32,000 bases of DNA from Flavobacteriaceae bacterium (GCA_965224465.1 OZ245049.1:3180001-3212000); one strand, 5' to 3'; counted from the stretch's first letter, positions 2,723 to 32,000 are shown. The notes: a model not told the origin generated them from the sequence alone. Translations and numbers: made by a program.

Positions 2723-4441
2723 ATGAGTACTATAGATAGAAAAAAATACGCATCCATGTATGGGCCTACAACAGGAGATAAAGTGCGTTTAGGTGATAGT
2801 GAATTATTCGCCGAAGTAGAAAAAGATTTTACCGTATATGGTGAAGAAAATAAATTTGGTGGTGGTAAAACAGTAAGAGATGGAATGGCGCAATCTGCTA
2901 CACATACGAGAGATGAAGGTGTGTTGGATTTATTGATTACCAATGCTCTTATTATTGATTATTGGGGAATTGTAAAAGCAGATATTGGGGTAAAAGACGG
3001 TAAAATTATCGGAATTGGAAAAGCAGGAAATCCAAATACGATGGATGGTGTGACTCCAGGGATGAACATTGGTGCTTCTACAGAAGTTCTCGCTGCCGAA
3101 GGTAATATAATTACTGCAGGAGGATTGGATGCTCATGTTCACTTTATTTGTCCTCAATTAGTAGATACTGCTCTGTATAGTGGGATCACTACCATGATTG
3201 GTGGAGGTACTGGACCTAGTCACGGTACGTTGGCAACCACAGTTACTCCAGGTGCTTGGAATTTAGAAAAAATGTTCCAATCGTTAGACGAATTCCCGTT
3301 AAATTTCGGGTTGTTTGGGAAAGGGAACTCTTCTTCGGAAGCCGCATTAGTAGAGCAAGTAGAAGCAGGCGCCTTAGGCTTGAAATTACATGAAGATTGG
3401 GGGACCACTCCATCTGCAATTGATACTTGTTTAACGGTTGCTGATAAATACGATATTCAAGTTGCGATTCACTCAGATACGTTGAACGAAGCTGGATTTG
3501 TTGAAGACACCATTGCTGCAATCAATGGTAGAACAATACATACATTCCATACCGAAGGCGCAGGTGGAGGACATGCTCCTGATATTATTACAATTGCAGG
3601 TTTACCAAATATCTTGCCTTCTTCTACAAACCCAACAAGACCGTTTACTGTAAATACAGCGGATGAGCATTTAGATATGCTTATGGTTTGTCATCATTTA
3701 GATAAAAATGTAAAAGAAGATGTATCATTTGCAGATTCACGTATCCGCCCAGAAACTATTGCTGCAGAGGATATTTTACATGATAAAGGTGTATTCTCTA
3801 TGATGAGTTCTGATTCTCAAGCAATGGGTAGAGTTGGAGAAGTTGTATGTCGTACTTGGCAAACTGCAGATAAAATGAAACGTCAATTTGGTGCCTTAGA
3901 AGAAGACAAAGGTAACGATAATGACAACTTTAGAATTAAGAGATATATTGCTAAGTATACAATTAATCCTGCAATTTCTCACGGTGTTTCTAAACATGTT
4001 GGTTCTATAGAGGTTGGTAAAATGGCAGATATGGTTATGTGGAGACCAGATATGTTTGGTGCGAAACCCGAACTTATTGTTAAAGGTGGGGTTGTATTAG
4101 CCTCTAAAATGGGAGATGCAAATGCATCCATTCCAACTCCTCAGCCAGTAGTATATAAACCAATGTTCGGATACTTTGGACAATCAATGAAAAAATCGTC
4201 TGCTATATTTGTTTCTCAAGTGTCCTTAGATAAAGGGATAGTTCAGGGATATGGTTTAGGTAAAAACGTATTGGCTGTTGAAAACTGTAGAAATATCAGT
4301 AAAGCAGATATGGTTTTAAATGATGCAACTCCTAAGATTGAGGTAAATGCTCAAACGTATGAAGTAAAAGTAGATGGAGAAGTAATTACTTGTGAGCCTA
4401 TTGATATTATTCCAATGGCACAATTGTATTTTTTGTTTTAA
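2723..4441 (+). CDS. ureC: Urease alpha (catalytic) subunit
   Basis: 572 aa. [29 protein letters not shown] and [12 protein letters not shown] nickel-site motifs. Confidence 0.98.
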
Positions 4442-4572: not shown

Positions 4573-4608
4573 ATACCAAATACATTTTCAAGTGACGGTT
4601 TAGGAAAG
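4573..4608 (+). repeat. Foldback repeat 5'-end fragment in the ureC-TBDR spacer
   Basis: ATACCAAATACATTTTCAAGTGACGGTTTAGGAAAG matches the first ~36 nt of the consensus. Confidence 0.85.
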
Positions 4609-8140: not shown

Positions 8141-8176
8141 ATTATTTATATCGGTCATTTTGGATTGCATTGGTAT
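8141..8176 (+). repeat. Foldback repeat 3'-end fragment in the ureF-ureG spacer
   Basis: ATTATTTATATCGGTCATTTTGGATTGCATTGGTAT matches the last ~36 nt of the consensus. Confidence 0.85.
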
Positions 8177-12190: not shown

Positions 12191-12350
12191 ATACCAAATA
12201 CATTTCCAAGAGACGGTTTAGAAATGGAATTATTTTTTATTTTAGCTAGGCGAAAAAAAGAAGGATAGTGTAGCTATCGTTCTGTTTTTCAACAACGCTA
12301 GAAGGTAAAATAAACTATTTATATCGGTTATTTTGGATTGTAATTGGTAT
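12191..12350 (+). repeat. ~160-nt foldback repeat, copy A (full)
   Basis: ATACCAAATACATTTCCAAGAGACGG...TTTTGGATTGTAATTGGTAT. Differs from copy B at only about 7 positions. Confidence 0.95.
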
Positions 12351-12351
12351 C

Positions 12352-12509
12352 ATACCAACTACATTTCCAAGAGACGGTTTAGAAATGGAATTATTTTTTG
12401 TTTTAGCTAGGCAAAAAAAAGAAGGATAGTGTAGCTATCGTTCTGTTTTTAAACAACGCTAGAAGGTAAAATAAACTATTTATATCGGTTGTTTTGGATT
12501 GTGTGGTAT
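12352..12509 (+). repeat. ~160-nt foldback repeat, copy B (full), 1 nt after copy A
   Basis: ATACCAACTACATTTCCAAGAGACGG...TTTTGGATTGTGTGGTAT. Confidence 0.95.
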
Positions 12510-14410: not shown

Positions 14411-14470
14411 TTATTGATGGGGATCTGTTTTGAGATTGTAATTTAAACGCTGTTAAAGGTGGTGTTTTGT
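14411..14470 (+). repeat. ~60-bp direct repeat X1 flanking copy C (contains a 3'-terminus-like TTTTGAGATTGTAATT)
   Basis: TTATTGATGGGGATCTGTTTTGAGATTGTAATTTAAACGCTGTTAAAGGTGGTGTTTTGT recurs at 14632-14692. Confidence 0.8.
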
Positions 14471-14471
14471 T

Positions 14472-14632
14472 ATCCCAATTAAATTTCCAAGTGAAGGTTT
14501 AGAAATGGAATTATTTTTTGTTTTAGTTAGGTGGAAAATGGAAGGAGAACCTTAGCTATTGTTCTGTTTTTTAACAACACTAGAACGTAAAACAACCTAT
14601 TTATATCGGTCATTTTGAATTGTAATTGGTAT
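14472..14632 (+). repeat. ~160-nt foldback repeat, copy C (full, apical stem degraded)
   Basis: ATCCCAATTAAATTTCCAAGTGAAGG...TTTTGAATTGTAATTGGTAT. Confidence 0.9.
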
Positions 14633-14760: not shown

Positions 14761-14920
14761 AATTGTATTTCTCTCTCTGAAATGCTGCTCCCGATAGAAA
14801 ATTAATTTTTGGGAAGTATAAACGTGTACTCTTAAAATGAGTTTGTTGATTTAAGAGTGTCGTTTTTTCCTAAAGTTAGGGAAAGGAATGCACGTTCTGA
14901 TATAGATGAGTTTTCAAGTA

Positions 14921-15080
14921 ATACCAACTATATTTCCAAGTGACGATTTAGAAATGGAAATATTTTTTGTTTTAGCTAGGCGAAAACTGGAAGGATAGCT
15001 CCGCTATCGTTCTGTTTTTCAATAACGCTAGAACGTAAAACAACCTATTTATATCGGTTATTTTGCATTGTAATTAGTCT
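14921..15080 (+). repeat. ~160-nt foldback repeat, copy D (full)
   Basis: ATACCAACTATATTTCCAAGTGACGA...TTTTGCATTGTAATTAGTCT. Confidence 0.9.
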
Positions 15081-15126
15081 AACTGGATAGGAAAGAAATG
15101 CCGGTTGGTTTGAATGCAAGCATCTT

Positions 15127-30179: not shown

Positions 30180-30629
30180 ATGTCAATAAAACATCTAAAA
30201 CCAGTAAAAGGAAGCGTAGTAGAATCAAAAGAACGTAAGATCTTAGTAGCAGATTATATGATTACAAATATAGTGACGTTTTCACCAGATCAATTAATTG
30301 TTAATGTTATGGATATATTGATAAAAAATAATATTTCAGGAGGACCTGTTGTGAATGAGAAAAACGAATTGCTCGGTATTGTTTCTGAGAGGGATTGTAT
30401 GAAACAAATTAGTGAAAGTCGATATTTCAACATGCCTATTCCTGATGCTATTGTAGACAATCACATGGCAAAAGATGTAGATACGATGGATAAAAACATG
30501 ACCATTTTTGATGCCGCTAATATTTTTTATTCTTCTGGAAGGAAACGGTTTCCAATTGTGGAAAATGGTAAATTGATAGGTCAAATAAGTAGAAGAGATA
30601 TTGTAAAAGCAGCATTAGATATGATGTAA
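30180..30629 (+). CDS. CBS-domain pair protein
   Basis: 149 aa. Two CBS repeats (MITNIVTFSPDQ...GGPVVN...LLGIVSERD and MAKDVDTM...RFPIVENGKLIGQISRRD). Confidence 0.85.
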   Translation: MSIKHLKPVKGSVVESKERKILVADYMITNIVTFSPDQLIVNVMDILIKNNISGGPVVNEKNELLGIVSERDCMKQISESRYFNMPIPDAIVDNHMAKDVDTMDKNMTIFDAANIFYSSGRKRFPIVENGKLIGQISRRDIVKAALDMM

Positions 30630-30787
30630 TATCAACTACATTTCCAAGTGACGGTTTAGAAATCGAATTATTTTTTGTTTTAGCTAGGTGAGAAATCTTA
30701 GGATAGTTAGCCTATCGTTCTATTTTTAACAACGTTAGAACGTAAAATAAACTATTTATATCGGTCATTTTGGGTTGTATTTGGTGT
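30629..30787 (+). repeat. ~160-nt foldback repeat, copy E (full); first base is the last base of the CBS gene stop codon
   Basis: ATATCAACTACATTTCCAAGTGACGG...TTTTGGGTTGTATTTGGTGT. Confidence 0.9.
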
Positions 30788-30816
30788 AATAAGAGTTTTT
30801 ATTGGTTTTATCCAAT

Positions 30817-30849
30817 AAAAAAAACCGTTCAAAGATGAACGGTTTTTTT
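30817..30849. terminator. Bidirectional terminator hairpin (A8 - ACCGTTCA AAGA TGAACGGT - T7); second copy at 31284-31316
   Basis: 8-bp GC-containing stem flanked by an A-run and a T-run. It could end both the CBS/repeat-E transcript (+) and the candidate sRNA (-). Confidence 0.7.
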
Positions 30850-30912
30850 ATCTCTTACCGAAGTAAGTTAGATTGAAACTTTCCCCAAATTTTCAATTTC
30901 TCTAATAAGTAT
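30817..30912 (-). ncRNA. Candidate ~96-nt small RNA, copy 1 (promoter, two hairpins, intrinsic terminator)
   Basis: Minus strand reads TATCTTTG(-7 box)-TACC-AUACUUAUUAGAGAAAUUGAAAAUUUGGGGAAAGUUUCAAUCUAACUUACUUCGGUAAGAGAUAAAAAAACCGUUCAUCUUUGAACGGUUUUUUUU. Hairpin 1 is UUAG/AUUGAAA..UUUCAAU/CUAA. Hairpin 2 is CUUAC-UUCG-GUAAG. The terminator is ACCGUUCA-UCUU-UGAACGGU followed by a U-run. No ATG in the transcript. The 5' end is inferred. Confidence 0.5.
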
Positions 30913-30916
30913 GGTA

Positions 30917-30924
30917 CAAAGATA
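30917..30924 (-). promoter_or_regulatory. Bacteroidota sigma-A -7 box TATCTTTG for candidate sRNA copy 1
   Basis: Exact TAnnTTTG on the minus strand. A conserved CCGAACAA lies 19 nt upstream in both copies. Confidence 0.45.
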
Positions 30925-31076
30925 TAGATGTTTTAGAATAGCATTGTTCGGGAAAACACATGATTAATTGTGGTTTTGCATAAAACAGAAGTTTTACTTT
31001 TTTTATCCCACTTGAAGGGTTTAATCCTATGAGGATAGGTCTTTAAAAACGAATTAGTTACCGTTTTCTTGGGGCA

Positions 31077-31104
31077 AATTTTTGAGGGATTATGTGGTTG
31101 GTAT
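31077..31104 (+). repeat. Foldback repeat 3'-end fragment abutting copy F with a 1-nt gap
   Basis: AATTTTTGAGGGATTATGTGGTTGGTAT versus consensus CATTTTGGATTGTAATTGGTAT (copy B ends GGATTGTGTGGTAT). Confidence 0.65.
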
Positions 31105-31105
31105 T

Positions 31106-31266
31106 ATACCAAATACATTCCCAAGTGATGGTTTAGAAATGGAATTATTTTTTGTTTTAGTTGTCGAAATGGATGGATAGCCTTGCTATTGGTATATTTT
31201 TTAACAATGCTAGAACGTGAAATGAACTATTTATATCGATAATTTGGGATTGGAATTACTTGGTTA
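31106..31266 (+). repeat. ~160-nt foldback repeat, copy F (full, most diverged)
   Basis: ATACCAAATACATTCCCAAGTGATGG...AATTTGGGATTGGAATTACTTGGTTA. Confidence 0.85.
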
Positions 31267-31283
31267 AAATTATTTTTTTCAAC

Positions 31284-31379
31284 AAAAAAAACCGTTCAAA
31301 GATGAACGGTTTTTTTATCTCTTACCGAAGTAAGTTAGATTGAAACTTTCCCCAAATTTTCAATTTCTCTAATAAGTAT
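31284..31379 (-). ncRNA. Candidate ~96-nt small RNA, copy 2 (identical to copy 1)
   Basis: 31284-31391 is 108/108 identical to 30817-30924, while the flanks are diverged. Confidence 0.5.
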
Positions 31380-31383
31380 GGTA

Positions 31384-31391
31384 CAAAGATA
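31384..31391 (-). promoter_or_regulatory. -7 box TATCTTTG for candidate sRNA copy 2
   Basis: Exact TAnnTTTG on the minus strand. Confidence 0.45.
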
Positions 31392-31664
31392 GGAATGTTA
31401 TAGGATGTATTTGTTCGGTAAAGCGCAGGTAAGACTGTGGGTTTTCGTATTGGATTGAATTTTTTTTTCTGTGCGTTTGTAAAGTTGAGATCTATGTATG
31501 CTTTACACTCATTTGATTTGTTAAATCTGTATTATTATATTGAATTATTTTTTGCAAGATAAAAGCTAAAATAGCTAGCATAGCTTTTTTATGGAAAGTT
31601 GGTTTTGAAAATTGGTTGTGAAAAGGAACCCCTATAATGCGACATTATAAAGTCAAATGAGGCT

Positions 31665-31809
31665 AATACCAACTATATTTCCATATGACGGTCTATAAAT
31701 TAAATTGTTTTTTGTTTTAGCTAGGCGAAAAATTTAAAGATAGCCTTCGCTATCGTTCTATTTTTTAACAACGTTAGAACGTAAAACAAACTATTTATAT
31801 CGGTGATTT
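31665..31809 (+). repeat. ~160-nt foldback repeat, copy G (3' end removed by IS66 insertion)
   Basis: ATACCAACTATATTTCCATATGACGG...CTATTTATATCGGTGATTT, then the IS66 IRL. Confidence 0.85.
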
Positions 31810-32000
31810 GTAAGCGTACGGAGAACTACATCTTGTAAGAAGTTAAAAATAATCTAATTTTTGCATCTAAACAAAAACGAAAATATAAATGTTAGGATTA
31901 GGTACAGAACACACGTATTATTATCACTTATCTGCAGTTGATATGCGAAAAGGATTTAATGGATTAAGTGGATTAGTTAGTGAGCACATGGAACAAGAGC
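31810..32000 (+). mobile_element. IS66-family insertion sequence, left end (IRL starting GTAAGCG), inserted into foldback repeat copy G
   Basis: The repeat consensus breaks off at 31809 and the sequence continues GTAAGCGTACGGAG. IS66-family inverted repeats characteristically start 5'-GTAA. tnpB starts 79 nt later. Confidence 0.65.
31889..32000 (+). CDS. tnpB: IS66-family accessory protein TnpB (Orf2), N-terminal 37 codons, runs off the window
   Basis: MLGLGTEHTYYYHLSAVDMRKGFNGLSGLVSEHMEQE contains the IS66 Orf2 N-terminal motif (.DMR.GF.GL...V). Confidence 0.8.
   Translation, partial: MLGLGTEHTYYYHLSAVDMRKGFNGLSGLVSEHMEQE

Follow-up and report, generated by a model that had tools for sequence, protein, structure and literature searches.

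The locus raises a simple question: does a 108-nt block that occurs twice in the window (the whole stretch of 32,000 nt of Flavobacteriaceae DNA that was analysed) constitute a gene in its own right and, if so, what would its product do? From the sequence alone, a preliminary description had read the block as a small RNA gene on the minus strand, driven by its own promoter. The comparative evidence presented here supports this reading, and every feature that the description listed was found again, at the same coordinates and on that strand (Table 1). We conclude that the block is, very probably, a genuine gene for a small non-coding RNA that has not been described before, an ordinary kind of bacterial regulator. 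That it is more than a chance arrangement follows from its conservation across genomes, which a single sequence does not show.

Table 1. Features of the two putative sRNA (small RNA) units and of their surroundings in the window.
Feature	Position	Strand	Description
sRNA copy 1	30817-30924	minus	-7 box TATCTTTG, two hairpins, strong terminator
Copy 1, -7 box	30917-30924	minus	TATCTTTG (TAnnTTTG), sigma-A type; only nn vary in 14/14 copies
Copy 1, CCGAA upstream element	30947-30951	minus	exactly 22 nt before the -7 box, about -38 to -34
Copy 1, T1	30953-30977	minus	A-tract, hairpin, U-tract; conserved 5' of every copy
Copy 1, predicted transcription start (A)	30912	minus	5 nt past the G of the -7 box
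Predicted RNA, 5' stretch AUACUUA		minus	single-stranded, precedes hairpin 1
Copy 1, hairpin 1	30868-30905	minus	UUAG/AUUGAAA...UUUCAAU/CUAA, presents the GGGG loop; from folding
Copy 1, invariant 14-mer	30876-30889	minus	UUUGGGGAAAGUUU, candidate seed or recognition loop; GGGG at 30883-30886
Copy 1, hairpin 2	30854-30867	minus	CUUAC-UUCG-GUAAG, 5 bp; compensatory changes relative to homologues
A-rich linker	between hairpin 2 and terminator	minus	
Copy 1, Rho-independent terminator	30817-30849	minus	5' A-tract, bidirectional; ACCGUUCA-UCUU-UGAACGGU, then U8
sRNA copy 2	31284-31391	minus	whole unit, -7 box to terminator; 108/108 identical to copy 1
Copy 2, -7 box	31384-31391	minus	
Copy 2, +1	31379	minus	predicted
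Copy 2, GGGG	31350-31353	minus	
Copy 2, terminator	31284-31316	minus	
Copy 2, CCGAA	31414-31418	minus	
CBS-domain gene	30180-30629	plus	borders the non-coding stretch, convergent to the block
D2D3 repeat beside copy 1	30627-30790	plus	MITE-like, about 160 nt; not part of the sRNA
D2D3, further copies near the locus	31104-31262, 31664-31809		blastn, alignments
D2D3, copies elsewhere in the window	12191-12354, 12352-12502, 14468-14630, 14918-15082		
D2D3, fragments	4573-4606, 8143-8171		
IS66-family left end	31810-32000	plus	GTAAGCG at 31810; not part of the sRNA
Orf2 (TnpB_IS66) gene	starts 31889, runs off the window	plus	translation, Pfam PF05717

The block lies in a 1.25-kb non-coding stretch between the CBS-domain gene on one side and the left end of an IS66-family element on the other. 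A covariance model of the block scores 124 bits on each copy and finds just these two in the 32-kb window. The complete identity of the copies begins with the -7 box and lasts through the whole U-run, against only 71-73% (about 70%) in the flanks, and a repeat finder reports the pair as a 177-nt repeat that is 86% identical, its members being spaced 467 nt apart. The predicted minus-strand transcript had been said to lack an ATG, and indeed none occurs from 30912 to 30817, nor does it contain a conserved ORF. The sole frame opened by TTG has 13 codons; its C-terminus shifts among homologues and it is missing from the variant L001. A small-protein reading was rejected, given that a conserved frame is absent.

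Relatives were reached via homologues of the CBS protein with 80-93% identity, which led to metagenome-assembled genomes (MAGs) and metagenome contigs. In these, the CBS gene faces aspS across a gap of about 240-320 bp that holds neither the dispersed repeat of about 160 nt nor an IS, and the block occupies that gap, on the aspS strand, just downstream of aspS and facing the CBS-domain gene in every relative found. The homology search proposed by the preliminary description thus located the block at one syntenic locus in Flavobacteriaceae relatives. Its carriers are the NORP129, NORP150, NORP167 and NORP270 MAGs together with Logan and JGI contigs, amounting to 13 distinct sequences. The order on the aspS strand is the same in every relative: aspS stop codon, a weak hairpin with a U-tract, CCGAA, a 22-nt spacer, TAnnTTTG, the RNA and a strong terminator. 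The first unit always starts about 100 nt past the stop codon on the same strand, a second tandem unit often comes next, and the array faces the convergent CBS-domain gene. Two intact units stand in tandem in NORP150, in NORP167 and on the L024/L027 contig, L018 and L022 also have a tandem pair, and L007, L023 and L025 each combine one intact unit with one decayed second unit.

The family has a narrow distribution. A pattern scan of one genome per species, covering 185,579 species, returned 11 matches, four of which are real and belong to the NORP Flavobacteriaceae MAGs; the remaining seven fall by chance within genes of unrelated phyla. When JGI metagenomes were scanned in a second pattern run, five contigs were recovered, each of them carrying the aspS-CBS locus. 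At four loci of outgroups with about 80% identical AspS (Lutibacter profundi and three others), the covariance model found no match, and a co-directional gene follows aspS after 16-140 nt instead. As judged from these sequences, the family keeps its synteny, tends to duplicate in tandem and does not extend beyond a narrow clade of marine Flavobacteriaceae.

Comparison of the regions upstream of the units points to a promoter of their own. In an ungapped alignment of 14 upstream regions, TA and TTTG of the -7 box never change, variation being limited to the two n positions (TATCTTTG, TATATTTG); CCGAA is likewise unchanged in 14/14 and always stands exactly 22 nt before the -7 box, across a spacer whose sequence is little conserved. 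The four bases after the -7 box (-4 to -1) vary, and the next base, an A, is invariant among the 13 distinct sequences. In silico, therefore, the -7 box, the CCGAA at its fixed distance and the +1 A are kept together in all 14 copies. TAnnTTTG alone occurs at chance level, with 43 matches in the window against 50.6 expected. Both promoter claims of the preliminary description were borne out: the exact -7 box is present, and the upstream element, given as CCGAACAA at 19 nt 5' of the -7 box in both copies, corresponds to CCGAA at 22 nt. Because the sigma-A box of Flavobacterium psychrophilum occupies -12 to -5 (PMC9723704), we infer that +1 falls on the invariant A, so that transcription is predicted to start at 30912 and 31379. 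The missing TTTG element at -33 is no objection, since this motif is not detectable in F. johnsoniae either (PMC7366714).

Further upstream of every copy lies T1, with the consensus AAAACC(G/A)CA...TG(C/T)G(T/C)TTT and a hairpin whose quality differs among copies. T1 resembles a terminator of aspS that accompanies each sRNA unit. A hairpin of the T1 type (AAAACCGCAU..AUGCGUUUU; in the window at 30953-30977 and 31420-31444, minus strand) occupies the same position in all loci. Directly behind aspS this hairpin is well formed. Several second copies (window copy 2, L018c2, L015 and L024c1) have a T1 that pairs better on the opposite strand, where G-U pairs stand in place of A-C mismatches, and at 31424-31439 of the window a terminator scanner flagged a plus-strand terminator-like site.

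Folding of the predicted RNA reproduced the arrangement of hairpins described earlier, with two corrections. The bulged hairpin 1 (UUAG/AGAA/AUUGAAA...UUUCAAU/CUAA) is present, and its loop is G-rich as had been claimed, but instead of a 12-nt loop it is best viewed as a tetraloop, GGGG, which sits on a weak UUU/AAA stem. Hairpin 2 with its UUCG loop is likewise present in the window, but the tetraloop is not a conserved feature: homologues have UACG, UUUG or loops of 6-7 nt. The strong intrinsic terminator stands as described, with its A-tract, its two stem arms around UCUU and U8; it comprises an 8-bp, G+C-containing stem lengthened by A-U pairs, a 4-nt loop and a run of 7-9 U. Five divergent variants that were folded separately all gave the same series of hairpin 1 with its GGGG loop, hairpin 2 and terminator (z between -4.5 and -5.8). 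The columns of UUUGGGGAAAGUUU are invariant in the alignment, and GGGG is apical in all five of these variants.

In an alignment of the 13 sequences, the proposed structure pairs 97% of cells. Both partners are changed in four pairs, of which hairpin 2 and the terminator contribute two each; none of 500 shuffles matched this, and among slid registers a slide of +3 gives two such pairs and the others none. The stems of hairpin 2 in homologues read UCUAC/GUAGA, GUCUACC/GGUAGAC and CUUGC/GCAAG, which are compensatory changes, and the covarying pairs of the terminator go from G-C to A-U and from A-U to G-C. The inner stem of hairpin 1 is invariant in 12 of the 13 sequences; L001 has a different, shorter stem below the same loop. 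The only departure is the NORP129 type, in which about 17 nt are deleted and an alternative stem, ACUU-ACUUU[GGGG]AAAGU-UU-GAGU, forms with a U-G pair and the loop unchanged. With an effective sequence number of 1.03 and few events, the covariation is suggestive and not statistically deep.

The whole RNA folds at -25.6 kcal/mol (z = -3.3). This value is due to the terminator: without it, hairpins 1 and 2 reach -9.1 kcal/mol (z = -0.6) and are thermodynamically unexceptional. Folding does not tell the strands apart, as the plus strand does just as well (z = -3.8); the assignment to the minus strand is therefore based on the promoter, on how the elements are ordered and on one G-U pair of L001. 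An RNA from the plus strand was rejected: its conserved hairpins would come after the terminator, the -7 box, CCGAA and +1 pattern would be meaningless, and the U-G pair needed by the L001 stem turns into C-A there. The terminator (A7-stem-loop-stem-U7+; 30818-30849 and 31285-31316 in the window) is perfectly bidirectional. Across the clade its sequence hardly changes, even over most of the loop, and such conservation is unusual for a terminator. In relatives without another hairpin, the sRNA terminator probably also ends the convergent CBS gene.

The preliminary description could not assign the block to a known RNA family, and our searches agree. A scan of the whole window against Rfam 15 at gathering thresholds gave no match in 30400-32000, and a permissive scan of this region gave only terminator-driven matches (E of at least 0.15, at most 29 bits against thresholds of 40-186), so that the block stays below every gathering threshold. 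Neither a tRNA nor a tmRNA was found in the block, and blastn of 30600-31900 against plasmid and phage collections gave no match. The only match in the window at an Rfam gathering threshold is 5_ureB_sRNA (RF02514; 79 bits, 2871-3170, minus strand). It lies antisense inside an ORF of 572 aa at 2723-4441, which we take to encode the urease alpha subunit, and most likely reflects coding-sequence conservation and not a real antisense RNA.

Conservation is higher in the block than in the protein-coding gene next to it. Identity between the window block and its orthologues is 91-94% in most cases, and 77-80% for L001 and L007/L023/L025, variants that have a deletion or an insertion. Across the same relatives, the CBS gene has 78-85% nucleotide identity (57-65% at third codon positions) and the flanking intergenic DNA is about 60-70% identical. 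The sequence comparison thus shows the anatomy of the block and its synteny, purifying selection on it, a promoter-like pattern, covariation in a few pairs and a narrow distribution.

The copies within a genome have evidently not evolved independently. Paralogous blocks are 89-100% identical within genomes, against 60-73% in their flanks, and they share lineage-specific states, such as the AAGUG linker of both NORP167 copies and the CUUAC/GUAAG hairpin of both window copies. These shared states imply concerted evolution, bounded by the -7 box and the U-run. A recent tandem or segmental duplication was rejected as the cause of the 108-nt identity, given that the flanks and adjacent repeats are 71-79% identical; for the same reason the duplication must be old. 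Decayed copies that still align to the unit were observed at L023 560-660, L025 about 650-760 and L007 3440-3560 (minus strand). From these it follows that the tandem duplication is ancestral to the clade and that the second copy is dispensable in some lineages. The decayed copies have CTGAA in place of CCGAA and TATCTTTA or TATCCTTA in place of TATCTTTG, the G of the -7 box being lost, and alongside these promoter elements GGGG is gone and the terminator is broken. Such joint loss is what the pseudogenisation of one functional unit would look like.

Two other elements lie next to the block. The dispersed repeat D2D3 occurs in seven full copies in the 32 kb, throughout in one orientation and 79-88% identical to one another, with the copies beside the two sRNA copies merely 79% alike. 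It is intergenic and has inverted ends of about 20 nt (ATACCAAyTACA..). Its fold, which only the plus strand gives, is a long imperfect hairpin in which several G-U pairs are conserved. D2D3 has no Rfam match and is missing from the homologous intergenic region of relatives. By these sequence features, D2D3 is a MITE/REP-like dispersed repeat separable from the sRNA block, and its uniform orientation might point to single-strand-based mobilisation. The sRNA block is not part of D2D3, since the covariance model matches just two sites in the window. The preliminary description had allowed that the block might prove to be the end of a multi-copy mobile element; this is not so, as D2D3 occurs elsewhere without it.

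The IS66-family element is inserted in the 3' part of the third D2D3 copy of the locus. It begins with GTAAGCG, which we take to be a typical IS66 end, and Orf1 is absent between this terminus and Orf2. The Orf2 product matches PF05717 over 37 aa (E = 2.2e-5, 24.7 bits), a score just under the 26.6-bit cut-off because the protein is truncated by the end of the window. The element probably separates the sRNA array from aspS, and a third sRNA copy possibly lies beyond the window, past the element.

On balance, we favour the view that the block is a gene for an sRNA of about 92-95 nt with a sigma-A-type promoter, in which the CCGAA at its fixed distance would be an unusual element, belonging to a lineage-specific family and probably acting in trans by base pairing. 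In this model, the primary sigma factor would start transcription at the invariant A, possibly aided or regulated by the CCGAA element. The RNA would then fold into its AUACUUA 5' end, hairpin 1 presenting GGGG within UUUGGGGAAAGUUU, hairpin 2, the A-rich linker and the terminator. The G-rich apical loop, perhaps together with the conserved 5' end, would pair with C/U-rich, CUUUCCCCAAA-like sites in distant mRNAs, a step that would proceed without Hfq. Selection or gene conversion would keep the tandem copies alike, and their number would raise the dose. With the unit directly behind aspS, some of the RNA could also come from aspS read-through. Given its invariance, UUUGGGGAAAGUUU at the tip of hairpin 1 is the obvious candidate for the functional site, and base pairing in trans with C/U-rich mRNA sites is the most likely mechanism, action as a protein or RNA decoy being the main alternative. 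A point against the pairing view is that seeds are usually open, whereas this GGGG tetraloop is closed by a stem.

Perfect complementarity of at least 8 nt to the loop was found only in the sRNA genes themselves and at a few sites antisense to coding genes (an M28 peptidase and PAP2), where the mRNA resembles the sRNA instead of complementing it. No complementary site on the sense strand near a start codon was found in the window or the related loci (about 130 kb of DNA). An RNAduplex scan of 92 start regions returned long, unspecific A/U duplexes and was discarded as uninformative. That no complementary site was found nearby would fit an RNA that is real but binds either a protein or a structured RNA (rRNA or tRNA, for instance), with the UUUGGGGAAAGUUU hairpin as recognition site and the tandem copies as titration capacity. 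The lack of local targets says little, however, because trans targets normally lie elsewhere in the genome. In further support of such binding, the invariant motif is shown as a closed GGGG tetraloop in every variant, and the surrounding stems may change, as in L001, which fits recognition of shape plus sequence. Moreover, Bacteroidota lack Hfq and ProQ, and the partners of their sRNAs are poorly known (PMC7366714). Each RNA has a single GGA-containing loop, unlike sponges of the CsrB/RsmZ type, and no partner protein gene is linked to the locus. We regard this reading as unlikely.

A more elaborate form of the decoy reading, which we consider quite unlikely, would make the family a lineage-specific, dosage-amplified decoy, with two or three tandem copies in concerted evolution and a GGGG hairpin that binds a protein or structured RNA. 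The position behind aspS would then be meaningful and CCGAA-N22-TAnnTTTG would mark a dedicated regulon. If true, it would mean an unusual bipartite promoter in a phylum whose post-transcriptional control is largely uncharted.

Just as doubtful, in our estimation, is the proposal that there is no independent gene, and that the block is a structured 3' UTR or terminator cassette of aspS (stabilising the mRNA or acting as an insulator) or else an sRNA released from the aspS transcript by processing, in which case conservation of the "promoter" would be RNA-level or coincidental. The place of the first unit, close behind the aspS stop codon and on the same strand, fits this proposal, and T1, weak and in some copies degenerate, makes read-through plausible. 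Yet the promoter-like elements follow the stop codon and the T1 hairpin, and conservation starts exactly at the -7 box. The variable -4 to -1 positions, the variable spacer and the fixed CCGAA are, moreover, the signature of a DNA promoter. Second tandem copies and both window copies are whole although insulated by a strong upstream terminator, and the window copies are further cut off from any aspS gene by at least 0.9 kb and the IS66 element. Intact units that have survived far from aspS, and behind strong terminators, make a role in the aspS 3' UTR unlikely.

That the block is a non-transcribed DNA element or a functionless passenger of mobile DNA (the end of a repeat or of IS66, or a recent duplication) seems highly improbable: each window copy does lie directly beside a D2D3 repeat, the IS66-family element is 420 nt off and the two copies are identical, but four other full repeat copies in the window lack the block, relatives carry it without repeat or IS, it has two copies in 32 kb at one locus that is syntenic in all relatives and occurs in 4 of 185,579 species genomes, its diverged flanks speak for an old duplication, and it is more conserved than the coding DNA beside it.

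The putative sRNA resembles known systems in several respects. The closest comparison is with GibS and the high-confidence intergenic sRNAs of Bacteroides thetaiotaomicron, which are likewise intergenic Bacteroidota RNAs of about 100-150 nt (Ryan et al. 2020, PMC7366714). In that study, the criteria for intergenic sRNAs were an own transcription start site, a Rho-independent terminator and read coverage. Shared features are the TAnnTTTG -7 box, two internal hairpins, an A/U-rich body, a Rho-independent terminator (PMC7366714) and a presumed Hfq-independent action in trans. GibS has a long single-stranded 5' seed, measured transcripts and validated targets (PMC7366714), whereas the invariant element here is a G-rich apical loop and the sRNA is known from sequence alone. 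The two have no kinship in sequence or at the level of Rfam, and the family described here, unlike GibS, is limited to a genus-level clade of Flavobacteriaceae.

Tandem sibling sRNAs are familiar from OmrA/OmrB, PrrF1/PrrF2 and Qrr, which are proteobacterial and Hfq-dependent and have known regulons. As in the OmrA/OmrB type, the units here are adjacent paralogues with a predicted promoter and a terminator each and an identical candidate seed, and their predicted transcribed part is far more alike than their flanks. Unlike in that type, genomes differ in the state of the second copy, which may be intact or decayed. Homology to any of these RNAs was excluded, as there is no Rfam match. RsaE/RoxS of Firmicutes are loop-seed sRNAs with C-rich UCCC loops that act independently of Hfq. 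They share with our candidate a conserved motif, here a putative recognition motif, in a hairpin loop and not at an open 5' end, as well as the presumed independence of Hfq; the sequences are unrelated, however, there is a single such loop here, and the polarity is opposite, such that the G-rich loop would seek C/U-rich sites and not Shine-Dalgarno sequences. Finally, sRNAs of the DapZ and MicL type derive from 3' UTRs and have internal promoters. The unit described here is similar in that a housekeeping gene directly precedes it on the same strand and the terminator at its end also closes the locus. It differs in that its predicted promoter comes after the stop codon and a terminator-like hairpin, not within the coding sequence, and in that extra copies exist away from aspS.

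To our knowledge, Flavobacteriia have yielded very few regulatory RNAs so far, and in marine members there is none with a characterised mechanism. The family described here is new but of a familiar kind, a lineage-restricted sRNA candidate that contradicts nothing in current understanding. It offers a well delimited candidate, with an exact predicted start, end and recognition motif and with comparative support. The decayed second copies and the deletion variant L001 provide natural "knock-out" alleles that make the candidate directly testable. In addition, the CCGAA-N22-TAnnTTTG arrangement may reveal how promoters of Bacteroidota make use of the -33 region.
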